Positions 11,410 to 46,679 of a stretch of 64,000 bases of DNA are shown in pieces. A program made the translations under genes and the position numbers. Where the stretch lies: NCBI GenBank assembly GCA_963770895.1, contig CAVYRF010000001.1, positions 704,481-768,480 of the forward strand, given 5' to 3'. Every line of letters starts with the position of its first letter. Within the stretch, counting starts at the first letter, position 1. The DNA comes from an uncultured Acidobacteriota bacterium. GTDB lineage: Bacteria > Acidobacteriota > Thermoanaerobaculia > Multivoradales > UBA5704. The notes beneath the pieces were generated by a model. The model was not told the DNA's origin. It made no database searches and saw only the letters and a program-made list of their open reading frames with translations.

Positions 11410-11442
11410 GTGCCGCCGCCGCCGGTGTCTCGCCGCCGCCGT

Positions 11443-19221: not shown

Positions 19222-20052
19222 TCATGACGCGAAGATCGCGCTGATCTCGCGCGGGCTGGCGGCCTCCTCGGCATAGGTGAAGGTGCCGTGCTCGCGCATC
19301 TCGCGCGCGGCGCGCAGGAAGGCGCCCAGCGCGGCGCGCGCCAGCGAGCTGCCGATGCTGATCCGCCGCACCCCCATCTCCGCCAGGGCGGCCTGGCTCA
19401 GCTGCACGCCGCGCAGCCCCATCACCACGTTGACCGGCCGGTCCACCGAGCTGATCACCGCCGCGATGTCTTCCCTGGTCGCCAGGCCCGGCGCATACAG
19501 CACGTCGGCGCCCGCCTCCTGGTAGGCCTGCAAGCGGGCAATCGTGTCCTTGATGTCCGGACGGCCGTGCAGGTAATTTTCGGCACGGCCGGTCAGCATG
19601 AAGGGGACGGGGAGCGCCCGCGCCGCCTCCGCCGCGGCGCGCACCCGATCCGCCGCCAGCTCGCGCTCATAGATCGGACTGTCGGCGCGCCCCGTCGCGT
19701 CCTCGATCGAACCGCCGACCACGCCCGCGGCCGCCGCCAGCCGGATCGTCTCGGCAGCCGCCTGGGGGCTGTCGCCGAAGCCGTTTTCCAGGTCGGCGCT
19801 CACCGGCAGATCGGTCGCGTACGCGATCTGCGCCAGGTGTTCCATGATCATTTCGCGGTCGACCGCGTTATCCAGCTTGCCGACCGAAAACGCGAAGCCC
19901 ATGCTGGTCGTAGCCAGCGCTTCGAAGCCAAGGTGGGCCAGCAGCCGCGCGCTGCCGATGTCCCAAGGATTGGGAATGATGAACGCCCCGGCGCGCTCAT
20001 GCAGCGCCCGAAACGCCTGTCCTTTTTCAACTTGCGAAGTCATCGTCGTCAC
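19222..20052 (-). CDS. isocitrate lyase / PEP mutase family protein (2-methylisocitrate lyase-like)
   Basis: 276 aa. IIPNPWDIGSARLL, TSMGFAF and GGSIEDATG blocks are typical of the ICL/PEPM superfamily. Confidence 0.85.
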   Translation of the reverse strand: MTTMTSQVEKGQAFRALHERAGAFIIPNPWDIGSARLLAHLGFEALATTSMGFAFSVGKLDNAVDREMIMEHLAQIAYATDLPVSADLENGFGDSPQAAAETIRLAAAAGVVGGSIEDATGRADSPIYERELAADRVRAAAEAARALPVPFMLTGRAENYLHGRPDIKDTIARLQAYQEAGADVLYAPGLATREDIAAVISSVDRPVNVVMGLRGVQLSQAALAEMGVRRISIGSSLARAALGAFLRAAREMREHGTFTYAEEAASPREISAIFAS

Positions 20053-20199
20053 CCGATCTCAAGCGCCTTGCCAGTGAACCGCCAGCAGCGGAGCTCCCGC
20101 CAGCGCCAGCGCCAGCCCAGGCCGCCGCCGTGAGCCCTCAGTATATTGCGCCGGCACCCTCGGCAGTGTGCCGCCGGGTCGGCCGGAAGGTAGCGCGCA

Positions 20200-20637: not shown

Positions 20638-21915
20638 ATGCAGCTTGCATTTCTCACGCTCTTTTTGGGCCTGGTCACAGGCTCGCTGCCGCTGTCGCTC
20701 ACCGCCGGCCCCGACGTCGCCAAGGTCGAGATCGTGCTGGACGGCGCTCCGGTTCAACGCCTGGCCGCGCCGCCCTGGAGCGGCAGGATCGACTTTGGCG
20801 CCGCGTTGCTGCCGCACCACCTGGAGGCGCGCGGCCTGGATGCCCAGGGGCGCGAGGTGGCGCACGCCGAGCAGTGGATCAACGTCCCGCGCGACCCCGC
20901 GGAAGCGCAGATCGTGGTCGAAAAAGCCCAGCCGGGCCAGCCTCGCACCATCCGTCTGGCCTGGCAGAGCATCACCAGCGACGCGCCCACCAAGGTGGCG
21001 CTCACCTTTGACGGCGCGCCGCTCGCCTTCGACAGCCAGTACCGCGCCGTCCTCCCCGCCCTCCACGGCACCGACACGCACGTCGTCGCGGCCGAGCTGC
21101 AATTTGCCGGCGGCGCCACGGCGCGCCACGCCGTCGCTCTCGGCGGCGAATATGACGACGCCGTCGCCAGCGACCTGACCGCGGTCCCCGTCTGGATCGC
21201 GCCGCGCGCCGAGCTGCCGCCGCTCGCCAGCCTGCAGGGGTGGTTTGCCGAAGAGGGCCGCCCGCTCCAGGTGCAGGCTGCCGACGCTGCCGCGCCCTGG
21301 CTCCTCACCGTGCGCGACGCCGCGGCCATGAAACTGCTCCGCCTCAGTTGGATGGCCCGCGACCGCTTCCGCTTCAAGCTGCCGCCGGGCAGCCGCATGC
21401 GCTTCATCTGGCCCCAGGCCAAGCGCCATGAAGCCTCGGGCCTGCCTTCCGAGATCTTCGACAGCAGCACCTACGCCATGGACGTGGCGCGCGACAGCAT
21501 CCCCTGGCTGCTCACCCGCGTCCAGCAGCCCGGCGCGGACCATCCCCGCCTGGCCGACGCCGCCGCCGCCTCAGGCCTGGCGCTGGCCGCCGCCGCCGGC
21601 CCCCGCGCCCTGATCGTCGTCCTGGATCCCGACACCAAGGACTACAGCCACCTCGACAGCGCCACCGTCCGCCGCTACCTGGAAGCCATCCACATCCCCC
21701 TGTTCGTGTGGGCAGTCGGCCCCCCCTCCGCCGACCTGACCGCCACCTGGGGCCACGTCACCAACATCTCCGTCGAATCCGGCATGGAATCCGCCTTCGC
21801 CGCCCTGCGCCAGGTCCTGGACCGCCAGCGCATCGTCTGGCTCGCCGGCCACCACCTTCCCCAACGCATCGCCCTGACCCCAGCCGCCGCCGGCCTCCAG
21901 CTCACCCCGCCCTGA
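20638..21915 (+). CDS. secreted hypothetical protein
   Basis: 425 aa from ATG 20638. Sec signal (MQLAFLTLFLGLVTGSLPLSLTA). GATAAAAT -10-like element upstream. No recognisable catalytic motifs. Confidence 0.6.
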   Translation: MQLAFLTLFLGLVTGSLPLSLTAGPDVAKVEIVLDGAPVQRLAAPPWSGRIDFGAALLPHHLEARGLDAQGREVAHAEQWINVPRDPAEAQIVVEKAQPGQPRTIRLAWQSITSDAPTKVALTFDGAPLAFDSQYRAVLPALHGTDTHVVAAELQFAGGATARHAVALGGEYDDAVASDLTAVPVWIAPRAELPPLASLQGWFAEEGRPLQVQAADAAAPWLLTVRDAAAMKLLRLSWMARDRFRFKLPPGSRMRFIWPQAKRHEASGLPSEIFDSSTYAMDVARDSIPWLLTRVQQPGADHPRLADAAAASGLALAAAAGPRALIVVLDPDTKDYSHLDSATVRRYLEAIHIPLFVWAVGPPSADLTATWGHVTNISVESGMESAFAALRQVLDRQRIVWLAGHHLPQRIALTPAAAGLQLTPP

Positions 21916-22103
21916 CGGCCCCCCGCCGGCGGCGTTCACCGGATCAGCAAGGTTTTTGCGCCCGGCGACCGCCCGCAGCGGGCGCATCGCGCGGCATGCG
22001 CCGGCGATTTAGCTTCTTCGCCGCGATTCATCGATCTGCATACTGCGATTCGATAGCGCCCCGCGGCCGCCCCGGTGGTCCGCCGGTCGGCACCTACTAG
22101 GGT

Positions 22104-25100
22104 GTGTCTGACAGCGAGCACCCTTTCGCCGCGCGCGGAGCTGGCGCGGCTCCGCAGGACCTCGCGCCGGCCGGCGATCTGGACGGCGGGGACGGCCGTG
22201 ACGCGATGCTGCGGGCGGCCGGGCCGGAAGAGCGGGCCGCCCTGGCGCTGGCCTGGCTGCGGCGCCAGGCGGCGGCCACCCTCGACCGGGACGCCGCGCA
22301 GCTCCCCGCGGACCGTTCGCTGGTGGCCCTGGGATTGGACTCGCTGGCGGCGGCCGAGCTCTCGGGCGCCGTCGAAAACATCCTGAAAGTGCCGCTCGGT
22401 GTAGCCGACCTCCTGGCCGGCGCCAGCCTCGCGGAGCTGGCCGGCGACATCGCCCGCAATCTCGATGAGGCTGCGGCGGCGTCGCACGCCGGCCAAGCCG
22501 GCGGTACGGTCCACGCCGGGGACGACGGCCGCCAGGTGGTCGTGCCGGAGCCCCACCGCGCCGGCGCGCCGCCCCCCGCCGCGCCGTCGCCCCGCACCGC
22601 CCTGTCGTGGGGCCAGCGCGCCCTGTGGCTGGTGGACCGCATGGCGCCGGGCAACCCGGCCTACATCCTGGCCGGCGCCGCGCACGTCGGGGTTGGCGCC
22701 GCGCGCGGCGGCGACCTCGACGTGGCGCGGTTGTGTCAGGCCATTACCGCCCTGGTCGCTCGCCATGCGGCCTTGCGCATGCGGTGCGAGCAGGGGAGCG
22801 ATGGAGAGGTGGTGCAGGTGGTGGGCGACCAGCCGCTGTTCGGCTGGCTTGAGGTGGATGCCGGCGTCCTGAGCGAGCAAGGGTTGCACGAGCTGGTGGC
22901 AGAGGAGGCTTGGCGGCCGTTCGACCTCGCCCGCGGGCCGCTGCTGCGAGTGGCTCTGTTCCGCGGTGGCGGCCGGGCGCCGCTGCTGGTGCTCGCGGTG
23001 CATCACATCGTCGCCGACTTCTGGTCGCTCGGCGTGATGATCGACCAGCTGGGTGCGCTCTACCAGGGGCGCCTCCTGGCGCCGCTCGCGGCGACGCATG
23101 GCGAGCACGCGCGGCGCCAGGCGGAGCGGTTGGCGGGACCCGAGGGGGAGGCCCTGGCGGCCTGGTGGCGCGCCGCGCTGCCGCCGGGGGCGCCGGCGCT
23201 CGAGCTGCCGACCGACCGGCCGCGGCCGCCGGTGCAGGGATTCCGCGGTGGCGCGCGGACGCGCTGGTGGGAGCGGGAGCTGGTAGGGGAGCTCGACCGG
23301 CTGGGCCGGCGGGCCGGGGCCACGCCGTTCATGACCCTGCTGGCCGCCTACATGACGCTGCTGCACCGCTACACCGGCCAGCCGGAGCTGCGGGTGGGGA
23401 CGCCAGCGTCCGGCCGTGGCGCGCCGGACCTCTCGGGCCTGGTGGGCTACTTCGTCAATCCGCTGGTGGTGCGCGGCGAGCTGGCCGGCAACCCCGGCTT
23501 CGAGCAGCTGCTGAGCCGGGTGCGGCAGGCCGTGCTCGCGGTGTTTGCCCACCAGGACTTCCCGTTTGCGCTGCTCGCCGAGCTGCTGGGCGGCGCCCGC
23601 GATCCCAGCCGGCCGCCGGTGTTCCAGGCGATGTTCGTGTTCTACAGCGAGCGGCGCGCCGGCGAGCGCGGGATGAGCGGTTTCGCGCTGGGCGAGGCGG
23701 GCGCGCGGCTCGATCTTGGCGGCCTCACGCTCGAATCGGTGCGGCTGCCGCGGCGCGGCGCGCAGGTCGATCTGACGTTGCTGGCGGCCGATCGCGACGA
23801 TCGCGACCAGCGCGCCGAGCGCGAGGGTGCGCGGGCGGTCTCGTTGCAGTTCGACAGCGTGCTCTTCGACGGCGCCACGGCGGAGCGGATGCTGGGTCAC
23901 CTGTGCGCGCTGGCCGCCGCCGCGGTCGCCGATCCGGGGTGCGGCATCCGCGACCTGCCGCTGCTCACCGCCGGCGAGCGCCAGCAGGTGGCGGAGTGGA
24001 ACGCCACCGCCGTCGCCTGGCCTGGCGACCTGCGCCTGCACCAGCTTTTCGAAGAGCAGGCGCGCCGCACCCCGGACGCGGTGGCCGTGGTGGTCGACGC
24101 CGCTACCGACGCCGACGCCGACGCCGACGCTGATACCGGCGCCGACACCGCCGGCGCCGGGTCCCGTCGCGGCCCCGCACCGCCGGCGGCCGGCCGCGCG
24201 GTGGCTTCCGCCGCGTGCTGGACCTACCGCGGCCTCGACCGGCGCGCCGACCGGCTGGCGCGAAGGCTGCGGCAGGCCGGCGTCGGGCCGGAATCCGTGG
24301 TGGCGATCCTGGCCGAGCGCTCGGCCGCCATGGTCGCCGGCCTGCTCGCCATCCTCAAGGCGGGCGGCGCCTACCTGCCGCTCGATCCCGACCACCCCGC
24401 CGAGCGCCTGCGCCAGATGCTGCACGACTCAGGCGCCGGCGTGCTCCTGGCACAGCGCCGGCTGCTGCCGCGGCTGGGCGAGCCGGACGCGCCGCCTGTC
24501 GTCGCGGCCGCGGTGCTGGTGCTCGACGATCCCGACCGGGACGATTCCGCCCAGGACGAGCAGGACGATCCCGCCACCGGCGGTGCCGCGTTCGGCGCTG
24601 CCGCTCTTGCGCTGGCGCCCGACGGCCGGCCGGAGCGTGCGCCGCCGCCGCTGGAGCGCGCCGTCCACCCGGATAGCCTGGCGTACGTGATCTATACCTC
24701 GGGCTCGACCGGCCGGCCCAAAGGCACCATGAACACGCACCGGGGCATCGTCAACCGGCTGCTCTGGATGCAGCAGCAGTACCGATTGGCGGCCGACGAC
24801 CGGGTGTTGCAGAAGACGCCGCTGTCCTTCGACGTGTCGGTCTGGGAGCTGTTCTGGCCGCTCGCGACGGGGGCGTGCCTGGTGATGGCCCGTCCGGGCG
24901 GGCACCGCGACAGCGGCTACCTGCTGGCGGCGCTGGCGGCGCACCAGATCACCACCGTGCATTTCGTGCCGGCGATGCTGAGCGATCTTCTCGCGGCCCT
25001 GCCGCCGCGGGGCGATGCAAGCTCGGGCGCCGGCCCGTGGGACGCCGCGCCGGCAGGGCTGCGCCGGGTCGTGGCAAGCGGCGAGGCGCTGCCCTACGGT

Positions 25101-28100
25101 CTCCAGCAGCGCTATTACGCGGCGCTCGCGGCGCCGCTGCACAACCTCTACGGCCCTACCGAAGCCGCGGTCGACGTCACCCATTGGGCGACCGACCCGG
25201 ACGCCGATCGGCGGCTGGTGCCGATCGGGCGGCCGGTGGCCAACACCTGGATCCGGCTGGTCGACCGCCAGGGCGGGCTGGTGCCGATCGGTGTACCGGG
25301 CGAGCTGTGCATCGGCGGCGTGCAGCTGGCGCGCGGCTACCTGGGCCGCCCGGCGCTGACCGCCGAAAGGTTCGTGCCCGATCCGCTGGGCGACGCGGCA
25401 GGAGCGCGCCTCTACCGCACCGGCGACCTGGCGCGCTACCTGCCGGACGGTGCCATCGACTACCTGGGCCGCCTGGACCACCAGGTGAAGATCCGCGGCG
25501 TGCGCATCGAGCTCGGCGAGATCGAAGCTGCCCTGCTGCGCCATCCGGCCGTGCGCGAAGCGGTCGTCACCGTGGCCGCCGTGGCGGACCACGCCTCGCC
25601 GGCCGGCGCCGACCCGCGGCTGGCGGCCTACCTGGTGACGCGCGGGGCGGCCGCGCCGCCGCGGGCGGGAGAGCCGGCGGCTGGGGAGCCGGCCGCGCCG
25701 CCTGCTGCGCCGGCCGCCGCGCCGCCGTCCGACCTGGCCGACGACCTCCGCCGCCTGCTGCGTCAGAGCCTGCCGGAGGCGATGATCCCGGCGGCCTTCG
25801 TGGTGCTGCCCGCGCTGCCGCTGTCGGCCAACGGCAAGGTGGACCGCCGGGCGCTGCCGGCGCCGCGGTGGGGCGCCGCCGCGGTCGCGGGCACGCCGCC
25901 GCGCACTGCCGACCAGGAGATCCTGGCCGGCCTGTTCGCGGAGCTGCTGGGGCTCACGGTCGCTGGCGACCGCAGCGGCGACAGCAGCGGCAACGGCGGC
26001 AGCAGAGCTAGCGGCGACAGCAGCGACGACGGCGAAAGCAGCGGCAACGGCGGAAGCAGCGGCAACGGCGGAAGCAGAGGCAGCGTCGACAGCGGAGGCA
26101 GCGGCGCCGCGGCCGGCGGGTGGGTGGCTGGAACACAGGGGGGCGAAGCCGCGGACGCGCGCGGCGTCGCGGCGGCGAGCGGTGGGGAGCAAGGCGGCGG
26201 CCTTGGCATCGACCAGAGTTTTTTCGATCTCGGCGGCCATTCGCTGCTGGCGACCCGCCTGCTGGCGCGGGTGCGCCAGGTGTTCGCGGTGGAGCTGCCG
26301 CTGCGGCAGGTGTTCGAGGCGCCGACGGTGGCCAGGCTCGCCGCGGCGATCGCGGCGGCGCGGCGGGGCGACCTGGCGGCGGCGCCGCCGCTCGTGCCGC
26401 TGCCGCCCGCGGCTCGCCAGGGGCCGCTGGCGCTCAGCTTCGCGCAGGAGCGCATGTGGTTTCTCGACCAGCTGGAGGGCGGCGGTGCCACCTACAACAT
26501 GCCCGGCGTGCTGCGCCTCGCGGGCCCGCTGCAGGTGGCGGCGCTGCGCGCCGGGCTGGCGGAGGTGTGCCGCCGCCACGAGGTGCTGCGCACGACGTTC
26601 ACCGTGCGCGATGGCGCCGCGGGGCCGGTCGCCCGCGTCGCCCGGCCGGCCGCCGCTCCGGGGCCGCCGCTGCCGCTGGTGGATCTGTCCGGGCTGGCGG
26701 CCGGCTGCCGACAGGCGGTCGCCTCGCGGCTCGCCGCCCTGGAGGCGCGGCGCCCGTTCGACCTCGTCGCGGGCCCCGTGCTGCGCGCCGTGCTGCTGCG
26801 CCTGAGCGGCGGGCCGCCCGCGGCGGCGCAGGCGCTCCACCTGCTGCTGCTCACGCTGCACCACATCGCCGCCGATGCCGAGTCGGTCGAGGTGCTGGCG
26901 CGCGAGCTGGCCGCCCTCTATACCGCGGGTGCGACCGGCAGGCCGCCAGACGCGGCGGCGCTGCCGCCGCTCCCCGTCCAGTATGCCGACTTCGCCGCCT
27001 GGCAGCGGGCGGCGCTCAGCGGCGACCGGCGCGCGGCCGAGGTGGCTTTCTGGCGCGAGCAGCTTGCCGGCGCGCGCGGCGCACCGCCGGTGCTCGAGCT
27101 GCCCTGCGATCGGCCGCGCGGCACGGTGAGCGGCCGGCGCGGGGCGCGGCGCCCCGTGGTGCTGCCCGCCGCGCTGGCCGGCAGGCTCGCGGCGGTGGCG
27201 CGGGACCACCGCGCCACCCTGTTCATCGCCTTGCTGGCGGCCTTCGACACCCTGCTGGGCCGTTACGGCGGCCAGGACGACGTCGCGGTGGGCGTGCCGG
27301 TCGCCAATCGCGACCGCGCCCAGATCCAGCCGCTGATCGGGCTGTTCGTCAACACGCTGGTGCTGCGCCTCGACCTGTCGGGCGACCCCACCTTTGGCGA
27401 GCTCCTGGGGCGCGCGCGGCAGACGGCGCTGGCCGCCTACGGCCACCAGGAGATGCCGTTCGAGCAGCTGGTCGCCCACCTGCAGCCGCGGCGCGCAGCG
27501 GGCGAAAGCCCGTTCTTCCAGGTGGTCCTGGCGCTCCAGCCCGGCCTGGCGGCGCCGGCGATGGCGGGCCTGGCGGTCGAGCTCGCCCCCGGCGACACCG
27601 GCACCGCCAAGTTCGACCTGTCTTTGGCGCTCGACGTCGCGCCCGACGGCAGCCTTGCCGGCACCTGGACCTGGCGCGCCGGCCTGTTCGACCCGGCGAC
27701 GATCGAGCGGCTTTCGGTGCAGCTGCGGCAGCTGCTCGCGGCGGTCGCCGCGGGCGAACCGGGACCGGCGGGCCGCCTCTCCGAGCTGCCGCTGCTCGGC
27801 CCGGCCGAGCGCCACCAGCTGCAGCGGGAATGGAACGACGTCTGGCAGCCGGGCGGCGGCGACCTGCTGCATGCGGCGTTCGAGCGGCGGGCGGCGCAGG
27901 TGCCCGACGCGGTGGCGGCGGTGGAGGCCGGCCACGACGGCCTGATGGGGCGCAGCCTCACCTACGGCGAGCTGGCGGCGCGCGCCGGCCGGCTGGCGTG
28001 CCGGCTGGCGGCGCTGGGAGTCGCGCCGGAGCGGATCGTCGGCGTCTCGCTCCCGCCGTCGCTCGACCTGCTGGTGGCGCTGCTCGGCATCCTCAAGGCG

Positions 28101-31100
28101 GGCGGCGCCTACCTGGCGCTCGATCCGGCGCAGCCGCGGGAGCGCCGGGCGCAGATCCTGGCCGAGTCGTCGGCACTCCTGGTCGTCGCCGCGAGTCCTG
28201 CGGCGCCCACCGCTCCGGTTACCGCCGCCACCGCCGCCGCCTCCTCCTCCGTCATCGCGGCCACCACCGCCGCCGCCGCCGCGCGCCCGTCCGCGGTCGA
28301 GGGCCTGATGCTGCTCGGCCCGGACGGGCGCGCGGCGGCGCTGGGCGCCGCGGCCGGCGCCACCCCCCGGCGCACCCCGTTCCCCCCGGCCCCGGATCCG
28401 GACCCCGACAACGCCGCCTACGTCCTCTACACCTCCGGCTCCGGCGGCGCGCCCAAGGGCGTCGTGGTCAGCCATCGCGCCGTCGTCAACCGTCTGCGCT
28501 ACCAGGTTGCCGCCGACCTCGCGCCCGACTCGCGGGTGCTGCAACGGGCGCGCCTCGCCTTCGACGTCTCGGTGCTGGAGCTGTTCGCGCCGCTCTGGGC
28601 GGGCGCCGCGGTGGTGCTGATCGATGCCGCCCGCCAGCAGGACGCCGGCTACCTGGCCCGCGTCGTGGCCGCGCAGCAGGTCACCAACTTCAACGCGCCG
28701 CCGGCGTTGCTCCCGGCCCTGCTGGCCGAAGACGAGCTCCGCCGCTGCCGCGCGCTGCGCCGCGTGGTGCTGGGCGGCGAGCGGGTGCCGGTCGACCTCG
28801 CTCACCGATTCGCGACGATGATGGCGGCTGGGCCTGGGGCGGCGCCGTTGCTGCTGTCGCGCTACGGTCCGACCGAGGCCACCATCTCGGTGACCGAATG
28901 GCACTGCCGCCCCGCGCCGGCCGCGCCTGCCGGTTCGGCCGGACCGCTCGGCTGGCCGATCGCCGGCGCTCGCCTCCACCTGCTGGACCGCCATGGCCGC
29001 GAGGTGCCGCCCTCGGCTCCGGGCGAGCTCTGCATCGGCGGCATCTGCCTGGCGCGCGCCTATCTCGCCCGGCCCGACCTGACCGCCGCGGCGTTCATCC
29101 CGGACCCCTTCGCGGCGCCGGGCGAAGAGGCGGGCAGCCGCCTCTACCGCACCGGCGACCTGGCGCGCCGGCGCGCCGGCGGCGAGCTGGAATTCCTCGG
29201 CCGCATCGACCGCCAGGTCAAGATCCGCGGCTTCCGCGTCGAGCTGGGCGACGTCGAGGCGGCGCTCGCCCGCCACCCCGGTGTGCGCGAAACGGCGGTG
29301 GTGGACCGCGACGAGCCGGCGACCGGCGGCAGGCGCCTGGTGGCCTACGTGGTGCCCCGCCAGGCGGATGCCGGCGGGCTCGAGCCGCAGGCGCTACGGT
29401 CTTTCGTCGCGGAGCACCTGCCGCCCTACATGCTGCCCGCCGCCTGGGTCCTGCTGGACTGCCTGCCGCTCACCGCCAACGGCAAGCTGGACCGGCGGGC
29501 GCTGCCCGAGCCGGCCGACCTGTCGCCGGCGGCGGACGCGGCGGAGCCGGCTGCGCTGGACGGGGCGAGCGGCCGCCGCGGCGCCGCCCCCCGCACCCCG
29601 GCCGAAGAGCTGCTGGCGGGGATCTGGTGCCAGCTCCTGGGCGTCCGGCAGGTATCCATCGGGGACGACTTTTTTCACCTGGGCGGCCATTCGCTGCTCG
29701 CCACCCAGCTGGTGTCCCGGCTGAGCGCGACGCTGGCGGTCGACCTTCCCCTGGCCAAGGTTTTCGAGCACCCCACCCTGGCGGCGATGGCGTCGGCGAT
29801 CGAGCAGGCGCGCGGCCTGGGCGGCGCGGAGCCCACCGTCGCCGGGCTCGCCGGCCGTCTGACGCCGGCGCACGAAGCCGGCGGCGGCGCCGGCCGGGGC
29901 GACGGCGCGCGGCCGGTGCCGCTACCGCTCCTGCCGCGGCAGGCGGGCGGCGCCGCGGCGCAGCTGCCGCTGTCGTTTGCCCAGCAGCGGCTCTGGTTCC
30001 TGGACCGCCTGGCGCCCGGCTCGCCGGCCTACAACATGCCGCTGGCGGTGCGGCTCTCCGGCGACCTGGACATCCCCGCCCTGGCTGCCGGCGTCGCCGC
30101 CCTGGTGGCGCGGCACGAGACCCTGCGCACCACCTTCCACGAGACCGCGGGCGAGCCCTGGCAGCGGATCGCGCCGCCGCTCGCCGCCGGTGCCAGCTCC
30201 GGCGCCGGCGCCGGCGCGGCCGCCACAAGCGCGCTGCCGGTCGTCGACCTGCGGGCGCTGGTGGACGCCGGTGAACCGGACGGCGAGCCGGGCGGTGGGC
30301 CGGGGCTGGATGCCGGCTGGCCAGGTCAGCCGGATGGTTTCGCGCCGCTGCCGCTGCCGCGGCGCGCGCTCGCCGCGGCGCTCGACCTGGCCGCGGCCGC
30401 GGCGCGGCGGCCCTTCGACCTGGCGCGCGGCCCGCTCTTCCGGCCCCTCCTGCTGCGGTTGACCGGGCGCGAGCACCTCTGGCTGGGGACCATGCACCAC
30501 ATCGTCTCCGACGGCTGGTCGCTGGGCGTCCTGGTGCGCGAGCTGACCGCCGTCTACGCCGCGCTGGCGGCCGGCCGGGAGCCCCGTCTGCCGGCCCTGC
30601 CGGTGCAGTACGCCGACTACGCCGCCTGGCAGCGCCAGCGCCTGTCCGGCGACCTCTTGGCGGCGCAGATCGCCCACTGGCGCGAGCGCCTGGCGGGCCT
30701 GCCGGCGCGGCTCGACCTGCCGGTGGACCGGCCGCGCCCGGCCGTCGAAACCGTCGCCGGCGCCCAGCGGCGCTGGCGCCTGGCCGGCGACGTGGCCGGC
30801 CGGCTGCGCCAGCTGGCGGCAGCGTCGGGGGCGACCCCGTTCATGGTCCTGGTCGCCGCCTTCCAGGCGCTCCTGGGGCGCTGGTCCGGTCAACAGGACC
30901 TGGCGGTTGGCACGCCGATCGCCGGCCGCAACCGCATCGAGATCGAAGGCCTGATCGGCTTCTTCGTCAACACCCTGGTGCTGCGCGCCGATCTCTCCAG
31001 CGGGCCGCGGCGCCTGGCGTTCGACCAGCTGCTGGCCCGCACCCGCGAGGCGACCCTGGCCGCGTACGCCCATCAGGAGCTGCCGTTCGAACGGCTGGTC

Positions 31101-34100
31101 GAAGAGCTGGCCCTGCCCCGCGACCTCGCCTCGACGCCGCTGTTTCAAGTCATGTTCGCGCTGCAGAACGCGCCCGCGGGGGGCCTCGAGCTGCCGGGCC
31201 TCCGCCTGGCGCCCGTCGCGGTCGGCTCGCGCACCGCCAAGTTCGACCTCACCCTGTCGCTGTCCGAATCCGCCGCGTTCGCTGCTGCGCTCGCACCGGC
31301 GCCGGACCAGGCGGCAACCTTTGCCGGCTGGCTCGAATACAAGACCGACCTGTTCGACGGCGCCACCGCCGAGCGCCTGCTGGACCACTTCGCCGCCCTG
31401 CTCGAGCGCGTCACCGCCGACCCCTCGGCGCCGCTCGCGGACCTCGACCTGCTGGGCGCCGCCCAGCGCCACCAGCTGCTCGTGGAATGGGGGCACGGCC
31501 CGGCGCTCGATACCGCCGGCGCGGCCGTCACCCTCGACCAGTATTTCGAAGCCTCCGTCGACCGCGCCCCCGACGCGGTGGCGCTGGTCTGCGAGCACGC
31601 CAGCCTCACCTACGGTCAGCTCGACCGGCGGGCCAACCGCCTCGCCCATCACCTGCGCCGCCTGGGAGTCGGGCCGGAGACCCCCGTCGCCCTCTGCCTC
31701 GAACGCTCGCTCGACATGGTGGTCGCCATCCTCGCCATCGTCAAGGCAGGAGGCGCCTACGTGCCGCTAGACCCCAGCTATCCGCAAGAGCGCCTGCGTT
31801 TCATCGCCGCCGACGCCCTGGCCGCCGCCAGGCGTCCGGTCCTGGTCACCCGCAGCGGCCTCGCCGGCCGCTTCGTCCGTCTACTGGGTGGGGGCGGTGG
31901 GGAAGGGGAGGGGGTCGGGACCGCCAGCACGCCCTTCCAGCTGGTCCTGGTCGACGCCCACCAGCGGCGCATCGCCCGCGCCCGCGCCAGCGCCCGCCGC
32001 CCGCGCGCCGGCGTGCCGTCCGCCGGTCTGGCCTATGTCATCTATACCTCCGGCTCGACCGGCCGCCCCAAGGGGACGATGAACACCCACCGCGGCATCC
32101 TCAACCGCGTGCTATGGATGCAGGGCGCCCACCCCCTGACCCCCGGCGACCGGGTGATGCAGAAGACCCCCATGTCCTTCGACGTCTCGGTGGGCGAGCT
32201 CTTCTGGCCCCTGCTGGCCGGAGGCTGCCTGGTCCTGGCCCGCCCCGAGGGGCACAAGGACGCCGCCTACCTGGTGCGCCTGGTCTGCGAGCAGGCCATC
32301 TCCATCCTGCACTTCGTGCCGGCCCTGCTCGACCTCTTCCTCGACCAGCCGCAGGTGGCGCAATGCCGCAGCATGCGCCAGCTGGTGGTGGGCGGCGAAG
32401 TGCTCTCGGCCGAGCTGCGAGACCGCTTTCGGGCTCGCCTCCCGCACTGCGAGCTGCACAACCACTACGGCCCCACGGAAGCCGCCATCGACGTTTCGGC
32501 GTGGACCTGCCGGCACGCCGGCGAGCAGGCGCCGGTGCCCATCGGCCGGCCGGTCGCCAACACCTGGCTCTACGTCCTCGACCGCGACCTGCGCCCGCTG
32601 CCGGCGGGGGTGCCCGGCGAGCTGCTCATCGGCGGCGTCCAGCTCGCCCGCGGCTACCTCGGGCGCCCCGACCTGACCGCCGAGCGCTTTGTCCCCGACG
32701 CCTGGAGCGCCGGCGGGCGCCTCTACCGCACCGGCGACCTTGCCCGCCACCGGTCGGACGGCGCCCTGGAATACCTCGGCCGCCTGGACCACCAGGTGAA
32801 GCTGCGCGGCTTCCGCATCGAGCTCGGCGAGATCGAGACGGTGCTCGCCGGACACCCGGCCGTGCGCCAGGCAGCGGTGCTCCTGGTGGATGCGCCGCCG
32901 GCAGGCGCTCAGCTGGTGGCCTGCGTGGTGGCACAACCGGGCGCCGGCACCGGCGCCGAGGCTGCCGCGATCTGGCCGGAGCTGCGCGCCTTCCTCGCCG
33001 CGCGGCTGCCCGACCACATGGTGCCGGCGGCGGTGGTCTGGAGCGCGGCGCTGCCCACCACGCCCAACGGCAAGATCGACCGCCGCGTCCTCACACAGCA
33101 GGCCGCCGACGCCGCGGCGGCGGTACGCGGCACCGCCCTGCCTGCCGCCGCCCCGCCCCGCGATGCCGTCGAAGCCGCCCTGACCGCGATCTGGTCCGAG
33201 ATCCTGGGCCGCGGCACGCTCGACCGCGACGACAACTTCTTCGACCTGGGCGGCCACTCGCTGCTCGCCGTCCGCCTGATGGCCAGGATTCGCCAGCGCT
33301 TCGGCCGCGAGCTGCCCCTGCAGACCCTGTTCCGCGCTGCCACCGTGGGGCAACAGGCGGCGTTGCTGCGAGCCGGCGCGGCGACCGCCGGCCGCTCCAT
33401 CCTGGTCGAGCTGACCCCCATGGCCAGCACCGCCGCCAACGCCGGCACCTCCACCAGCGCCGGCACGCCCACCAACGCCGGCACCTCCGCCGACGCCGGC
33501 ACCTCCGTCAAGGCTGGCAGCCCCGCCGCATCGGAGCCCGCAGCCCGCCCGTTCTTCTGCGTCCACCCCGCCGGCGGCAACGTCCTCTGCTACGCCGAGC
33601 TGGCGCGGTCGCTGGGAGCGGACCAACCCTTCTACGGCCTGCAACTGCCCGACCTGCGAGACCTGCCGCCCGACGCCACGGTCGAGGCGCTCGCCTCCCG
33701 CTACGTGACCGCCCTTCAAGCCGTGGCCCCCAACGGTCCCTATGCCCTGGGCGGCTGGTCGCTCGGCGGAGCCATCGCCTACGAGATGGCCCATCAGCTG
33801 CGCCTGGCCGGCGAACAGGTCGACCTGCTGGCCCTGATCGACCCCTCGCCGCTTTCCGTCACCCACCCGCAGTCGCCGGAACCGGAAGATCCTGAAACCT
33901 CGGCCGCAAGTCCGGCGACGACTGCCAGTGCCGGGATGCCGGCTGCGGAACCGGAAGATGGGAACCACGGCGCCGACGCGCAGCTCGCCGCCGCCTTTGC
34001 CTACGACCTGGCCGCCCTGAGCGGCCACGACGCTGCGCAGCTGGCCGCGGCGCACGCGTCGCTGCACCTCGATCCAACCCGCCCGCTGCCCGACCTGCTG

Positions 34101-34448
34101 GCGGCCGGCCGCGCCGCCGGCCTGCTGCCAGCCGACCTGGCAACCGACGACGTGGAGCGGCTCTTTGACCTCTTCCGTACGACCTGGCAAGCCTTCCGCC
34201 GCTATCGCCCCGAGCCCTACCCAGGCCGCCTAACCCTCCTGCGTGCCGCCCACCGCCGATCGTCCGCCAACGGCCATCCGCCGACAGAGCCCGCCGCCGC
34301 CTGGGCCGCGCTAGCCCGCCAAGGCGCCGACATCGAAACCCTGGCCGGCGACCACTACTCGATCGTCCGCCCACCCGCCGTCGATCGCCTGGCCCAAGCC
34401 CTCCGCCGCCGTCTGACCGCAACCAGCCGCGGCTCCGGCCCCAAGTGA
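22104..34448 (+). CDS. non-ribosomal peptide synthetase, 3 modules: T0-C-A-T-C-A-T-C-A-T-TE
   Basis: 4114 aa. Four carrier motifs (LGLDSL; FFDLGGHSLLATRL; FFHLGGHSLLATQL; FFDLGGHSLLAVRL). Three C domains (HHIVADFWS; HHIAADAES; HHIVSDGWS). Three A domains (A3 AYVIYTSGSTGRPKG / AYVLYTSGSGGAPKG; A5 NxYGPTE; A7 YRTGD; A8 GRxDxQVKIRGxRIELGEIE). Terminal thioesterase GWSLGG. Start is GTG 22104, the first start after an in-frame TAG. Later Met starts are possible. Confidence 0.95.
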   Translation: MSDSEHPFAARGAGAAPQDLAPAGDLDGGDGRDAMLRAAGPEERAALALAWLRRQAAATLDRDAAQLPADRSLVALGLDSLAAAELSGAVENILKVPLGVADLLAGASLAELAGDIARNLDEAAAASHAGQAGGTVHAGDDGRQVVVPEPHRAGAPPPAAPSPRTALSWGQRALWLVDRMAPGNPAYILAGAAHVGVGAARGGDLDVARLCQAITALVARHAALRMRCEQGSDGEVVQVVGDQPLFGWLEVDAGVLSEQGLHELVAEEAWRPFDLARGPLLRVALFRGGGRAPLLVLAVHHIVADFWSLGVMIDQLGALYQGRLLAPLAATHGEHARRQAERLAGPEGEALAAWWRAALPPGAPALELPTDRPRPPVQGFRGGARTRWWERELVGELDRLGRRAGATPFMTLLAAYMTLLHRYTGQPELRVGTPASGRGAPDLSGLVGYFVNPLVVRGELAGNPGFEQLLSRVRQAVLAVFAHQDFPFALLAELLGGARDPSRPPVFQAMFVFYSERRAGERGMSGFALGEAGARLDLGGLTLESVRLPRRGAQVDLTLLAADRDDRDQRAEREGARAVSLQFDSVLFDGATAERMLGHLCALAAAAVADPGCGIRDLPLLTAGERQQVAEWNATAVAWPGDLRLHQLFEEQARRTPDAVAVVVDAATDADADADADTGADTAGAGSRRGPAPPAAGRAVASAACWTYRGLDRRADRLARRLRQAGVGPESVVAILAERSAAMVAGLLAILKAGGAYLPLDPDHPAERLRQMLHDSGAGVLLAQRRLLPRLGEPDAPPVVAAAVLVLDDPDRDDSAQDEQDDPATGGAAFGAAALALAPDGRPERAPPPLERAVHPDSLAYVIYTSGSTGRPKGTMNTHRGIVNRLLWMQQQYRLAADDRVLQKTPLSFDVSVWELFWPLATGACLVMARPGGHRDSGYLLAALAAHQITTVHFVPAMLSDLLAALPPRGDASSGAGPWDAAPAGLRRVVASGEALPYGLQQRYYAALAAPLHNLYGPTEAAVDVTHWATDPDADRRLVPIGRPVANTWIRLVDRQGGLVPIGVPGELCIGGVQLARGYLGRPALTAERFVPDPLGDAAGARLYRTGDLARYLPDGAIDYLGRLDHQVKIRGVRIELGEIEAALLRHPAVREAVVTVAAVADHASPAGADPRLAAYLVTRGAAAPPRAGEPAAGEPAAPPAAPAAAPPSDLADDLRRLLRQSLPEAMIPAAFVVLPALPLSANGKVDRRALPAPRWGAAAVAGTPPRTADQEILAGLFAELLGLTVAGDRSGDSSGNGGSRASGDSSDDGESSGNGGSSGNGGSRGSVDSGGSGAAAGGWVAGTQGGEAADARGVAAASGGEQGGGLGIDQSFFDLGGHSLLATRLLARVRQVFAVELPLRQVFEAPTVARLAAAIAAARRGDLAAAPPLVPLPPAARQGPLALSFAQERMWFLDQLEGGGATYNMPGVLRLAGPLQVAALRAGLAEVCRRHEVLRTTFTVRDGAAGPVARVARPAAAPGPPLPLVDLSGLAAGCRQAVASRLAALEARRPFDLVAGPVLRAVLLRLSGGPPAAAQALHLLLLTLHHIAADAESVEVLARELAALYTAGATGRPPDAAALPPLPVQYADFAAWQRAALSGDRRAAEVAFWREQLAGARGAPPVLELPCDRPRGTVSGRRGARRPVVLPAALAGRLAAVARDHRATLFIALLAAFDTLLGRYGGQDDVAVGVPVANRDRAQIQPLIGLFVNTLVLRLDLSGDPTFGELLGRARQTALAAYGHQEMPFEQLVAHLQPRRAAGESPFFQVVLALQPGLAAPAMAGLAVELAPGDTGTAKFDLSLALDVAPDGSLAGTWTWRAGLFDPATIERLSVQLRQLLAAVAAGEPGPAGRLSELPLLGPAERHQLQREWNDVWQPGGGDLLHAAFERRAAQVPDAVAAVEAGHDGLMGRSLTYGELAARAGRLACRLAALGVAPERIVGVSLPPSLDLLVALLGILKAGGAYLALDPAQPRERRAQILAESSALLVVAASPAAPTAPVTAATAAASSSVIAATTAAAAARPSAVEGLMLLGPDGRAAALGAAAGATPRRTPFPPAPDPDPDNAAYVLYTSGSGGAPKGVVVSHRAVVNRLRYQVAADLAPDSRVLQRARLAFDVSVLELFAPLWAGAAVVLIDAARQQDAGYLARVVAAQQVTNFNAPPALLPALLAEDELRRCRALRRVVLGGERVPVDLAHRFATMMAAGPGAAPLLLSRYGPTEATISVTEWHCRPAPAAPAGSAGPLGWPIAGARLHLLDRHGREVPPSAPGELCIGGICLARAYLARPDLTAAAFIPDPFAAPGEEAGSRLYRTGDLARRRAGGELEFLGRIDRQVKIRGFRVELGDVEAALARHPGVRETAVVDRDEPATGGRRLVAYVVPRQADAGGLEPQALRSFVAEHLPPYMLPAAWVLLDCLPLTANGKLDRRALPEPADLSPAADAAEPAALDGASGRRGAAPRTPAEELLAGIWCQLLGVRQVSIGDDFFHLGGHSLLATQLVSRLSATLAVDLPLAKVFEHPTLAAMASAIEQARGLGGAEPTVAGLAGRLTPAHEAGGGAGRGDGARPVPLPLLPRQAGGAAAQLPLSFAQQRLWFLDRLAPGSPAYNMPLAVRLSGDLDIPALAAGVAALVARHETLRTTFHETAGEPWQRIAPPLAAGASSGAGAGAAATSALPVVDLRALVDAGEPDGEPGGGPGLDAGWPGQPDGFAPLPLPRRALAAALDLAAAAARRPFDLARGPLFRPLLLRLTGREHLWLGTMHHIVSDGWSLGVLVRELTAVYAALAAGREPRLPALPVQYADYAAWQRQRLSGDLLAAQIAHWRERLAGLPARLDLPVDRPRPAVETVAGAQRRWRLAGDVAGRLRQLAAASGATPFMVLVAAFQALLGRWSGQQDLAVGTPIAGRNRIEIEGLIGFFVNTLVLRADLSSGPRRLAFDQLLARTREATLAAYAHQELPFERLVEELALPRDLASTPLFQVMFALQNAPAGGLELPGLRLAPVAVGSRTAKFDLTLSLSESAAFAAALAPAPDQAATFAGWLEYKTDLFDGATAERLLDHFAALLERVTADPSAPLADLDLLGAAQRHQLLVEWGHGPALDTAGAAVTLDQYFEASVDRAPDAVALVCEHASLTYGQLDRRANRLAHHLRRLGVGPETPVALCLERSLDMVVAILAIVKAGGAYVPLDPSYPQERLRFIAADALAAARRPVLVTRSGLAGRFVRLLGGGGGEGEGVGTASTPFQLVLVDAHQRRIARARASARRPRAGVPSAGLAYVIYTSGSTGRPKGTMNTHRGILNRVLWMQGAHPLTPGDRVMQKTPMSFDVSVGELFWPLLAGGCLVLARPEGHKDAAYLVRLVCEQAISILHFVPALLDLFLDQPQVAQCRSMRQLVVGGEVLSAELRDRFRARLPHCELHNHYGPTEAAIDVSAWTCRHAGEQAPVPIGRPVANTWLYVLDRDLRPLPAGVPGELLIGGVQLARGYLGRPDLTAERFVPDAWSAGGRLYRTGDLARHRSDGALEYLGRLDHQVKLRGFRIELGEIETVLAGHPAVRQAAVLLVDAPPAGAQLVACVVAQPGAGTGAEAAAIWPELRAFLAARLPDHMVPAAVVWSAALPTTPNGKIDRRVLTQQAADAAAAVRGTALPAAAPPRDAVEAALTAIWSEILGRGTLDRDDNFFDLGGHSLLAVRLMARIRQRFGRELPLQTLFRAATVGQQAALLRAGAATAGRSILVELTPMASTAANAGTSTSAGTPTNAGTSADAGTSVKAGSPAASEPAARPFFCVHPAGGNVLCYAELARSLGADQPFYGLQLPDLRDLPPDATVEALASRYVTALQAVAPNGPYALGGWSLGGAIAYEMAHQLRLAGEQVDLLALIDPSPLSVTHPQSPEPEDPETSAASPATTASAGMPAAEPEDGNHGADAQLAAAFAYDLAALSGHDAAQLAAAHASLHLDPTRPLPDLLAAGRAAGLLPADLATDDVERLFDLFRTTWQAFRRYRPEPYPGRLTLLRAAHRRSSANGHPPTEPAAAWAALARQGADIETLAGDHYSIVRPPAVDRLAQALRRRLTATSRGSGPK
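25968..26110 (+). repeat. reiterated AGCGGCAACGGCGG(A/C)AGCAG units encoding an roughly 80-aa Gly/Ser/Asp-rich insertion between A1 and T1 of the NRPS
   Basis: Encodes DRSGDSSGNGGSRASGDSSDDGESSGNGGSSGNGGSRGSVDSGGSG. No equivalent linker occurs in modules 2 and 3. Confidence 0.5.
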
Positions 34449-34474: not shown

Positions 34475-34717
34475 TCAATCGCTCAGCGACCTCTTCTCAC
34501 CCAGCAGATCCTCGATCTCCGCGAGCAGGTCATCAGCCTTTCCAGCGTATGCCCGCGCGAGACCCGCGTCAGTCTCCCGGCGACGCTTTGCTGAAAAATA
34601 GGTTTTGACAGCTGAGCTGATAAAGGCCGAACGACCCTTTTGTTGGGTTTCTGGATCGTCGTCGATCCGTCGCAGCAGCTCTTGATCCAGCCAGATCCTT
34701 ATGGGGCGAGTTGTCAT
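34475..34717 (-). CDS. ribbon-helix-helix (CopG/antitoxin-like) DNA-binding protein
   Basis: 80 aa. MTTRPIRIWLDQELLRRIDDDPETQQKG is a typical RHH N-terminus. An alternative start 13 codons upstream (34756) is possible. It is convergent with the NRPS, and no toxin partner is adjacent. Confidence 0.6.
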   Translation of the reverse strand: MTTRPIRIWLDQELLRRIDDDPETQQKGRSAFISSAVKTYFSAKRRRETDAGLARAYAGKADDLLAEIEDLLGEKRSLSD

Positions 34718-34779: not shown

Positions 34780-35196
34780 TCAGCCGGCGCGGAGCAGCAG
34801 GACGGGGACGTTGACGCTGTGCTGGACGCGGTTGGCGGTGACGCCCAGGAAGAGGTCGGCCAGGAAGCGGTGGCCGTGGGTGCTCATGGCGACCAGGTCG
34901 CAGCCGCGTTCGCGGACCCAGCGGACGATTTCGGTGGCGGGGTCGCCGTAGGCCAGCTCGGCCTGGGCGGGGATGCCCAGGGCCTCGAATTCGACGCGGA
35001 CGGCTTCCAGGTAGGCGGTGTCGTCGCGGATCTCGGGGCTCACGGCGTCGGGGCCGAAGGTGCGGGCGGCCCAGCCGGTGGCGACGTGCAACAGGACGAT
35101 GCGGGCCTGGGTGAGCTGGGCCAGGGGCTTGACGTGCTCGATGATGGCGCGATCGCTCCTGGTGGTGTCGAGGGTGACGAGAATGCACTGATACAT
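34780..35196 (-). CDS. universal stress protein (UspA family)
   Basis: 138 aa. Contains ILVTLDTT...IVLLHV...GDPATEIVRWVRERGCDLVAMSTHGHRFLADLFLGVTANRVQHSVNVPVLLLR. GGAGGGG RBS. Embedded in a longer 188-aa ORF. Confidence 0.85.
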   Translation of the reverse strand: MYQCILVTLDTTRSDRAIIEHVKPLAQLTQARIVLLHVATGWAARTFGPDAVSPEIRDDTAYLEAVRVEFEALGIPAQAELAYGDPATEIVRWVRERGCDLVAMSTHGHRFLADLFLGVTANRVQHSVNVPVLLLRAG

Positions 35197-35216
35197 CGCC
35201 CCTCCTGCGCAGCCGT

Positions 35217-35382
35217 TAGTGGCCTGTCCTGGAGAATTCGAAAGCGGATGGCGCCGGCAATCGGCGGCGGGGGCCAGGCGCGCCGACGCAGGCATAGTCG
35301 GAACTATGTCGAGGAGGCGCAACGCCGCACCCGCCGTCGAGGGCAAGCCAGGCGCTTTCGAATTCTCCAGGACAGGCCACTA
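35217..35382. repeat. perfect 30-bp inverted repeat (TAGTGGCCTGTCCTGGAGAATTCGAAAGCG) separated by 106 bp
   Basis: The arm at 35217-35246 equals the rc of 35353-35382. It lies between the mntH stop and the usp start, and each arm contains GAATTC. Confidence 0.7.
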
Positions 35383-35402
35383 GTGTGCCGCCGCCATGGG
35401 AA

Positions 35403-36794: not shown

Positions 36795-36803
36795 GTCGGA
36801 TGT

Positions 36804-36817
36804 TTTGAGCACTCAAA
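36804..36817. promoter_or_regulatory. palindrome TTTGAG-CA-CTCAAA 10 nt upstream of the mntH ATG (candidate metalloregulator operator)
   Basis: 6-2-6 perfect dyad. A minus-strand TTGACA hexamer lies about 30 nt further upstream. A DtxR/MntR-family regulator gene is 0.8 kb away. Confidence 0.35.
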
Positions 36818-37036
36818 GTATTGAATCACAGGTACCCGAATTGTGTCAAAGCCCAGGTAGCAGGATGGTGACAGCTGCGCTTTCGGCGCTCGCCGCGCTC
36901 GCGCCGCGCCCGCCATCGTCTAGGATACGGGGCCTGGGCTTGTCGGGCAGCAAGGCCCGCCATCATGCGCTCCGCCCGGCGCGGCTTGCGCGCCGTCGCG
37001 GCAGCCTCAGATCGACCCGATCAAGGAGAGAAAATC

Positions 37037-37417
37037 ATGGGAAACCCGTTCTGCCACGTTGAGCTGACCACGACCGACATGGACAAGGCCAAGAGCTTCT
37101 ACACCGGCCTGTTCGATTGGAATCTCCAGGACGTGCCGATGGGTCCTGGCGGCAGCTACACCTTGATCGGCGTGGGCAAGGACAAGGCCGGCTGCGGTGG
37201 CGGCATGATGTCGATGCCGGGCGCCCCGACGGCGTGGATGGCCTACGTGCTGGTGGACGACGTCAAGGCGTCCACCGAAAAGGCCCGCTCGCTCGGTGCC
37301 ACCATCGTCAAGGATGTGATGGAGGTGCCGGGCGCCGGCTGGATGAGCATCATCACCGATCCGGGTGGTGCCACGCTCGGTCTCTGGGAAGCGAACCCGA
37401 ACGCCCAGCAGTCCTGA
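37037..37417 (+). CDS. VOC (glyoxalase/bleomycin-resistance) family protein
   Basis: 126 aa. AAGGAGAG RBS. Contains MGNPFCHVELTTTDMDKAKSFYTGLFDW and GATLGLWE, typical of the VOC fold. Confidence 0.8.
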   Translation: MGNPFCHVELTTTDMDKAKSFYTGLFDWNLQDVPMGPGGSYTLIGVGKDKAGCGGGMMSMPGAPTAWMAYVLVDDVKASTEKARSLGATIVKDVMEVPGAGWMSIITDPGGATLGLWEANPNAQQS

Positions 37418-37605
37418 TCGCCCAACCTGCCGCCGGCGTGGCTAGTGAGCCGCCTGTACCCGGCGGCCGCGGACAAGCCAGAGCTGGTCGAGGGCAGGCC
37501 CGGCGCCAGCGGTTTTGCTGGTACAGGTCCCTGGTGCCCCGGTCGTCGGGGCACCGGGCGCCCGGTGGGCGGGGTCGGCCGCGGGGCGGGGCCGGCGGCG
37601 CGGTT

Positions 37606-38271: not shown

Positions 38272-38468
38272 TGCGGGGGGAGTCTACCAGGTAGGGTGGG
38301 AGTCGATTGCGTGCTTTCGAACGGTGCGGCAGGCGGGGACATGGTATCATTTGCGCACATTCGACGGCCAGGTATTTGTCGCCGCCGAGCCGCTGTAGTA
38401 CCTTAGTACCCAATGGCGAAAATGCTGGTGCCTCGGTGGGTCGTGCGACGGGTCAAGGTCACCGCGCA

Positions 38469-45148: not shown

Positions 45149-45283
45149 GAAAATCGCCGTTGATCTGACCCGCTACCACCGCCCCAGACCACTAGACGTG
45201 CGATCGGGGGGCGTGGTATCTTCTAAAACAAGCAGACCAATGTCGTCCTTCGATCCTGTTTGGATGGGGGAGAGGAGGTAAGC

Positions 45284-45589: not shown

Positions 45590-45621
45590 CGCGTTCCGAA
45601 CGGTTGCCAGCGCGGCGCGGC

Positions 45622-46656: not shown

Positions 46657-46679
46657 CCACCTGCAACACGCTCCGCTCA

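Follow-up and report, generated by a model that had tools for sequence, protein, structure and literature searches.

A carrier-first peptide synthetase of an uncultured Thermoanaerobaculia bacterium, whose initiation pair resembles that of lipoinitiation modules

In a stretch of 64,000 nucleotides from an uncultured Thermoanaerobaculia bacterium (assembly GCA_963770895.1, contig CAVYRF010000001.1, positions 704,481 to 768,480; "the window" below means this whole stretch), one gene encodes a non-ribosomal peptide synthetase (NRPS) which begins with a carrier domain. We read it as an intact trimodular NRPS, whose first two domains, the carrier T0 and the condensation domain C1, derive from an initiation module of the fatty acyl-AMP ligase (FAAL) type, whose carrier would receive its acyl group in trans and whose product would be an N-acyl tripeptide; we give this reading a probability of about 0.58. 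An earlier note on this DNA, made from the sequence alone, had taken an N-terminal carrier (T) domain followed by a condensation (C) domain to imply that the first unit is delivered in trans, and the homology of T0-C1 to FAAL-served pairs bears this out. The parts on which the argument turns are the following.

22104..34448, plus strand: NRPS gene, 4114 amino acids (aa), GTG start (list of open reading frames, ORFs; Pfam on the whole protein and on pieces)
22254..22445, plus strand: T0, carrier of the acyl carrier protein (ACP) type, aa 51-114; PF00550, E=2e-11; Ser80 in LGLDSLAAAEL
22602..23987, plus strand: C1, condensation domain, aa 167-628; PF00668, E=1e-69; active-site motif HHIVADFWS
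21916..22205, no strand: intergenic region and possible 5' leader of the NRPS gene; its sequence holds no FAAL coding remnant

Pfam searches with the whole protein and with ten overlapping sub-pieces give the domain order T0-C1-A1-T1-C2-A2-T2-C3-A3-T3-TE (A, adenylation domain; TE, thioesterase), the same order that had been proposed from the sequence. The features of a type I modular NRPS are present, namely four PF00550, three PF00668 and one PF00975 domain and three adenylation domains of PF00501 plus PF13193; epimerisation (E) domains are lacking. Based on a motif scan and on reading of the sequence, all catalytic motifs are intact: the carrier Ser motifs of T0 to T3 lie at aa 80, 1380, 2530 and 3719, the HHxxxD motifs of the condensation domains at aa 300 (C1, HHIVADF), 1586 (C2, HHIAADAES) and 2798 (C3, HHIVSDG), and the GWSLG motif of the TE at aa 3884. 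Of the adenylation core motifs, the scan found motifs A7, A8 and A10 in all three domains and motifs A3 and A5 in the first and third domain, and a variant A3 motif (SGSGGAPKG) and the A5 motif SRYGPTE were read from the sequence of the second. The ORF runs over 12.3 kb without stop or frameshift, and the GC content of its third codon positions (GC3) is 0.92, as is usual for true genes in this GC-rich window (69-78%). Its frame is shut just upstream of the GTG at 22104 by an in-frame TAG (22098-22100), which leaves no upstream extension, as had already been pointed out in the earlier note. In an independent assembly of the same organism the gene call places the start at the position of ATG 22206 (Met35), which would shorten the protein to 4080 aa; T0 is whole with either start. 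Since the upstream junction recurs in that assembly, an artefact of assembly does not account for the FAAL-less start.

The two initial domains differ in what they resemble. The nearest solved carriers of T0 are the ACPs of polyketide synthases (PKS) and fatty acid synthases (FAS), namely CurA, the Pks13 ACPs and PpsC; these matches are weak (E 0.005-1), and no NRPS peptidyl carrier protein (PCP) ranks above them in the PDB, while T2, taken as a control, matches NRPS PCPs at E values down to 5e-30. C1 finds its best PDB matches in the elongation C domains of Txo2/Txo1 and TycC and in the fuscachelin PCP-C structure, all of the LCL type, and the starter C structures (CDA-C1 4JN3, RzmA-Cs) are missing from its match list. 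A starter-type C1, which had been considered earlier, is therefore not what we find: C1 is LCL-like and is preceded by T0. Nor is the start of the aryl carrier protein-cyclisation (ArCP-Cy) kind, C1 having HHIVADF and not the DxxxxD of Cy domains. As a finding that would speak against its view, the earlier note had named an LCL-type C1 together with an A-T loading didomain encoded immediately upstream; the first is seen, the second is not present.

What T0-C1 is became apparent from its relatives. A search with the pair found Acidobacteriota proteins of up to 55% identity, several of which carry PF23024 (FAAL-type) or PKS domains besides PP-binding and Condensation, and a genome scan fetched 80 related loci (labelled L001 onwards), including Pyrinomonadaceae, Blastocatellia, other Thermoanaerobaculia, Nostoc/Scytonema/Calothrix and Chloroflexota. 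About 60 of the 80 have a further 557-931 in-frame residues ahead of the T-C match, an extension of FAAL size (~600 aa), and the only extension scanned, that of L057, consists of PF00501 plus PF23024, i.e. a FAAL. The closest relatives, L001-L008 and L062 (45-59% identity, metagenome-assembled genomes of Thermoanaerobaculia), have ORFs beginning with the carrier, like the one in the window; the ORF of L080 is also carrier-first, but its carrier is degenerate. T0-C1 is 36-47% identical to FAAL-linked pairs and 51-59% to its FAAL-less closest relatives L001-L008. In a neighbour-joining tree without support values, the window, L001-L008, L062 and L080 make up a FAAL-less clade, nested among the FAAL-bearing lineages L021, L077, L057, L051 and L043, and the internal pairs of the window, T1-C2 and T2-C3, fall outside the family as outgroups. 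The alignment identifies HHIVADFWS of C1 as a family signature, conserved in FAAL-linked C domains from three phyla, and LGxDSL as a motif common to T0 and the FAAL-linked carriers. Within the FAAL-less clade LGLDSLAAxEL including its Ser is kept throughout and degenerate in L080 only, which argues that T0 is still under selection; L035, L050 and L069 in the clade are without the carrier too. By identity, tree placement and motifs alike, T0-C1 is thus homologous to FAAL-linked ACP-C pairs. On this homology, T0-C1 is the ACP-C half of a FAAL-type lipoinitiation module minus its FAAL; it is, as judged from sequence, not a novelty but a member of a large carrier-condensation family in Acidobacteriota, cyanobacteria and Chloroflexota.

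The ligase itself was searched for with tblastn, using five FAAL domains, and with Pfam. In the window the FAAL domains match A1-A3 only, so that neither a FAAL coding remnant nor a stand-alone gene of the ANL superfamily, to which FAALs belong, was found in it, and nothing FAAL-like lies upstream of 24654 in any frame. A FAAL is thus neither fused upstream of the ACP, where the TAG at 22098-22100 closes the frame, nor encoded beside it, A1-A3 being the only ANL enzymes in the 64 kb; the earlier statement that the window is without a stand-alone A domain or FAAL stands. With no FAAL in cis, the loading of T0 would have to occur in trans. As candidate donors, a stand-alone A domain, a FAAL or the neighbouring proteins had been listed before, and from this list the FAAL emerges as the best candidate, owing to the homology of T0-C1 with the ACP-C pair that follows an in-frame, FAAL-sized extension in most relatives; the neighbours drop out, as detailed below. 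A search with a FAAL profile found stand-alone FAALs to be abundant in Thermoanaerobaculia, and a 2025 review of FAALs treats stand-alone, didomain and NRPS-fused enzymes as alternative arrangements (PMC11837247).

Several points weigh against our reading. No FAAL or other ANL enzyme is found in the 64 kb beyond the synthetase's own A domains, the 10 kb preceding the T-C gene yielded no FAAL match in L001, L003, L004, L006, L007 and L062, and none of the best 120 FAAL profile matches in a set of 5.8 billion proteins could be traced to the contig of the window. FAAL genes usually lie beside their ACP (PMC11837247), so that an unlinked partner would be atypical. The flanks of the NRPS gene are without an exporter or tailoring gene, unlike those of several relatives with MacB-type permeases. 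The A-domain codes discussed below are hand-read, and those of A2 and A3 could not be assigned. Finally, the lone locus that looks like a division into a FAAL gene and a T-C-A gene, L083, is most likely frameshift-split and was rejected as a natural example, since helix 1 of its ACP runs on in the +1 frame past the FAAL stop; its next gene boundary (A/T) is also frameshifted in appearance. A literature search on FAAL, condensation domain and lipopeptide in Acidobacteria returned nothing relevant.

The missing loader could also be sought within the synthetase. A1 might load T0 as well as T1 in cis, much as more than one carrier is served by the A domain of HMWP2; in that case two identical residues would be joined by C1, giving a tetrapeptide without a cap, Ser-Ser-X-X. 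No trans loader is seen in the window or beside the FAAL-less relatives, T0 with an intact Ser is kept in about ten FAAL-less loci, so something must load it, and C1 is of the elongation type, the kind which normally joins two aminoacyl or peptidyl carriers. However, T0 is ACP-like, shares 32% identity over 65 residues with T1 and matches PKS/FAS ACPs, not PCPs, and T0-C1 descends from FAAL-served pairs, whose signature motif it retains. We therefore consider loading by A1 quite unlikely.

Another arrangement is suggested by L002, where a FAAL-ACP-C-A-(T)-C-A-T gene, a MacB/FtsX permease and then a T-C-A... gene follow each other on one strand (2-13300), so that two carrier domains face each other over the subunit boundary; the T-C-A... 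gene is the closest relative of the window's gene in the tree. By analogy, the NRPS of the window might form the downstream part of a divided assembly line, with its FAAL-ACP-C-A-T... partner encoded elsewhere, T0 serving for docking or hand-over, and a product larger than a tripeptide. Against this, a T domain already closes the first gene of L002, and no catalyst is known for direct T-to-T transfer; the six relatives searched over 10 kb upstream have no FAAL match there, and the window holds no FAAL-initiated partner. We regard a split line as distinctly improbable.

More far-reaching would be the possibility that in the FAAL-less Thermoanaerobaculia clade (the window, L001, L003, L004, L006, L007 and L062) the ACP is loaded by a route which has not been described for NRPS lipoinitiation. 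Such a route might be transacylation from an acyl-ACP or acyl-CoA of primary metabolism, the use in trans of the FAAL domain of another synthetase, or loading by an A domain of the NRPS itself. We consider this rather unlikely; if true, it would amount to a recurrent alternative initiation logic and not to a one-off loss.

Some of the related loci have gene contexts of their own. In L004 (716-9859; L006 is similar), a fusion of an AMP-binding fragment with a luciferase-like monooxygenase (minus strand) is encoded upstream of the carrier-first T-C-A NRPS, together with a major facilitator superfamily transporter, a Lys/Orn N-monooxygenase (PF13434) and a MacB/FtsX permease, a context like that of a hydroxamate siderophore; the A-monooxygenase protein could be the trans loader in that locus. 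In L083 (5755-21782), genes for a penicillin-amidase-family protein (PF01804) and a haem-oxygenase-like protein are divergent from the FAAL ORF and the T-C-A... NRPS. The amidase of L083 recalls PvdQ, by which the precursor of pyoverdine is freed of its acyl cap, and a similar removal of an acyl cap is conceivable there by analogy.

Downstream of T0-C1, the synthetase is made up as follows (all on the plus strand).

24210..25838, plus strand: A1, adenylation domain, aa 703-1245; PF00501 and PF13193; hand-derived code DVWHVSLVDK, Ser-like
25902..26351, plus strand: T1, PCP, aa ~1267-1416; Ser in LGGHSL at aa 1380; PF00550, profile positions 18-67 only
26418..27821, plus strand: C2, condensation domain, aa 1439-1906; PF00668, E=5e-80; HHIAADAES
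27879..29486, plus strand: A2, adenylation domain, aa 1926-2461; PF00501 and PF13193; hand-derived code DVLNVGRISK
29610..29801, plus strand: T2, PCP, aa 2503-2566; PF00550; PCP matches in the PDB to 5e-30
29961..31481, plus strand: C3, condensation domain, aa ~2620-3126; PF00668 in two stretches; HHIVSDG
31545..33074, plus strand: A3, adenylation domain, aa 3148-3657; PF00501 and PF13193; hand-derived code DVGHVGHIDK
33177..33368, plus strand: T3, PCP, aa 3692-3755; PF00550
33549..34406, plus strand: TE, type I thioesterase, aa 3816-4101; PF00975, E=2e-32; GWSLG

The specificity codes of A1-A3 are provisional readings by hand from motif anchors, at the reference positions of EntF and GrsA. 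As read in this way, the code of A1 is near known Ser codes, and the Ser-activating EntF is among the PDB matches of A1; A1 probably loads Ser. The hand-read codes of A2 and A3 allowed no assignment, and none of the three codes found a match in a literature search. C2 and C3 have LCL-type elongation C domains as best PDB matches, with starter C structures ranking far lower. The earlier note had asked whether C2, with its HHIAADAES, might be a dual E/C domain; besides the LCL-type matches, its N-terminal region (LSFAQERMWFLDQLEGGG...RHEVLRTTF) is without the second HH motif of such domains, and the idea had to be abandoned.

Neither did a suggested duplication of modules within the gene survive comparison. 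The strings from motif A3 to motif A4 on which it was based are indeed shared by A1 and A3 (aa 860/3310 and 909/3359). However, A1 and A3 are 49.6% identical overall (A1-A2 41%, A2-A3 43%), and A1 has closer counterparts in other genomes (A domains with 59% identity in L002, 54% in L001 and 65% over the core in L021). YTSGSTGxPKGxMNTHRGIxNRLxWMQ, the shared string, is also found in the A domains of 16 further loci, Nostoc and Scytonema among them, and is therefore the signature of a subfamily, to which EntF belongs as well.

The gene also contains repetitive insertions. In T1, about 80 Gly/Ser/Asn-rich residues lie between helix 1 and the Ser of LGGHSL and cut short the Pfam match; they are encoded by an 18-bp tandem repeat of 7.5 copies (25972-26106). 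A second 18-bp tandem repeat (5.8 copies, 33423-33527) gives (A/T)NAGTS-like repeats in the T3-TE linker. C3 is interrupted by a low-complexity insertion of about 65 aa (~30200-30400, aa ~2700-2765), which divides its Pfam match in two, and short tandem repeats occur in the same area (30352-30432).

Taken together, the synthetase would work in the following way. A phosphopantetheinyl transferase (PPTase) would turn T0-T3 into their holo forms, and a FAAL or related acyl-loading enzyme encoded elsewhere would, as we infer, adenylate a fatty or other carboxylic acid and load it onto Ser80 of T0, a carrier whose homology points to a fatty or other acyl cargo. C1 would then use acyl-S-T0 as donor and the aminoacyl-S-T1 supplied by A1, probably seryl, as acceptor. 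C2 and C3 would append two further L-amino acids, and the TE would release an N-acyl tripeptide, linear or possibly cyclised. A small N-capped tripeptide, probably starting with Ser, is the most plausible product; the note's proposal of a small N-capped tripeptide stays in place.

The NRPS gene stands alone in its neighbourhood. Pfam scans of the other ORFs of the window found no PPTase, type II TE or transporter adjoining it, and a motif scan found no MbtH in the window; that no MbtH, exporter or tailoring gene flanks it had also been observed before. When 14 neighbouring proteins were searched with tblastn in the 80 related loci, none had a conserved linkage to the NRPS, and they are therefore not treated as cluster members. 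For the relatives, it should be noted that MacB_PCD/FtsX permeases (~820 aa) adjoin the carrier-first NRPS in L002, L003, L004, L007 and L062 (L003 has two and an ABC ATPase); in the window there is no such permease. Permeases of this kind are very abundant in Acidobacteria, and the linkage may partly be due to chance.

Since exporter and tailoring genes are missing from its flanks, the NRPS of the window could be a stranded, silent remnant of a larger cluster, or T0-C1 could be a leftover without a role in a synthetase making a plain tripeptide from A1-T1 onwards. The absence of FAAL and MbtH and of neighbours conserved with the NRPS would fit, and the loss of the carrier in L035, L050 and L069 as well as its degeneration in L080 demonstrate that erosion of the start occurs. 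Against a remnant speak the unbroken 12.3-kb ORF with its GC3 of 0.92, the intact motifs including the Ser of T0 and HHxxxD of C1, and the good conservation of T0 at 45-60% overall divergence. We find this explanation unlikely.

The immediate neighbours and the ORFs mentioned below are:

19222..20058, minus strand: phosphoenolpyruvate (PEP)-mutase/isocitrate-lyase-family protein
20638..21915, plus strand: membrane-anchored or secreted hypothetical protein, no Pfam match
34475..34717, minus strand: small convergent ORF, 80 aa (MTTRPIRIWLDQELLRRIDDD...RSAFISSAV...), of lower GC; by eye with the look of a ribbon-helix-helix/CopG-type antitoxin
38399-40816, plus strand; 46896-49625, 48317-50755, 50388-51803 and 51787-53379, minus strand: radical S-adenosylmethionine (SAM) ORFs

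The first two had been proposed as possible donors of the starter unit. Physical closeness, and nothing else, favours such a role. The 80 related loci show no synteny of either protein with the NRPS, neither has an adenylating or acyltransferase domain, and the family of the hypothetical protein, which occurs in Thermoanaerobaculia/Acidobacteriota, sits away from NRPS genes in both homologue contexts examined; that either supplies or loads the starter is hardly credible. Of the ribbon-helix-helix gene said to lie convergently downstream, the convergent ORF is there and its identity is a judgement by eye.

Further upstream lie genes for SCO1/SenC, a fusion of cytochrome c with a periplasmic binding protein, a SAM methyltransferase and a thioredoxin-like protein; the fusion is a single ORF (14818-16980, plus strand) of cytochrome c domains and Peripla_BP_6, flanked by the SCO1/SenC and thioredoxin-like genes. 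At 1268-6741 (minus strand) a KaiC-family double-ATPase gene adjoins a PAS/GAF hybrid histidine kinase with a receiver domain. Downstream, the small ribbon-helix-helix-like ORF is followed at 34780-38283 by genes for Usp (minus), an Nramp/MntH-like transporter (minus), a glyoxalase (plus) and a DtxR-family regulator with a FeoA domain (minus), a close homologue of which is named 'Mn-dependent transcriptional regulator' by the JGI. The DtxR-family regulator and Nramp are presumably an ordinary pair for Mn homeostasis; a metallophore link via them was set aside, the window being without a hydroxylase or monooxygenase of the L004 kind. Beyond these lie five ORFs for B12-binding radical SAM or radical SAM/SPASM proteins (38399-53379, some of the ORF calls overlapping), among them a nucleotidyltransferase and glycosyltransferases, and then a GT4 and a polysaccharide-biosynthesis (flippase-like) gene (56828-60783). 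The gene set at 38399-60783 may be a separate cluster for glycan or lipid modification.

Among characterised systems, fused FAAL-ACP-C synthetases such as PvdL of pyoverdine and the vioprolide NRPS (PMC11837247) come closest. They share with the window an ACP-type carrier directly before an acylating C domain; pairs of this kind in Acidobacteriota, cyanobacteria and Chloroflexota are homologous to T0-C1 and have HHIVADFWS in common with it, and PvdL is among the PDB matches of C1, but at 90 bits only. In the window, however, neither the polypeptide nor the 64 kb around it includes a FAAL. Loading of an N-terminal ACP in trans by a stand-alone FAAL is known from FadD32-Pks13 and FadD26-PpsA of M. 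tuberculosis. They resemble our case in that an N-terminal ACP needs a separate FAAL, and Pks13 ACPs are among the nearest solved carriers of T0; yet they are PKSs, in which the ACP hands over to a ketosynthase, while T0 is followed by a C domain, and their FAAL genes are adjacent, whereas the window has none. In lipoinitiation of daptomycin and calcium-dependent antibiotic (CDA), a stand-alone FAAL (DptE), a stand-alone ACP (DptF) and a starter C domain cooperate. There, too, a FAAL-activated fatty acid on an ACP is condensed with the first amino acid, as we propose for the window, but the ACP of the window is fused to the NRPS and C1 is LCL-like, the CDA starter C domain 4JN3 not being among its matches. 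Finally, the aryl-capped siderophore synthetases HMWP2, MbtB and PchE begin with ArCP-Cy, the carrier being loaded by a stand-alone adenylating enzyme. The carrier-first start with probable loading in trans is alike, but C1 has HHxxxD instead of DxxxxD, and T0 is ACP-like, with relatives served by FAALs and not by aryl-acid ligases. Carrier-first synthetases loaded in trans are thus already well known.

If our reading is right, the gene would be a further small lipopeptide synthetase still to be characterised, found in a high-GC, uncultured lineage of the Thermoanaerobaculia, a group from which, to our knowledge, little natural-product chemistry has been described; the finding touches no long-standing question of the field. 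Its use lies rather in genome mining, where a carrier-first NRPS start in these genomes would be read as a FAAL-type lipoinitiation module, whose FAAL should be sought elsewhere, and should be mistaken neither for an error of assembly nor for a novel mechanism of initiation. Following the repeated loss of the FAAL over the whole family would furthermore show how initiation modules are split and reshuffled.

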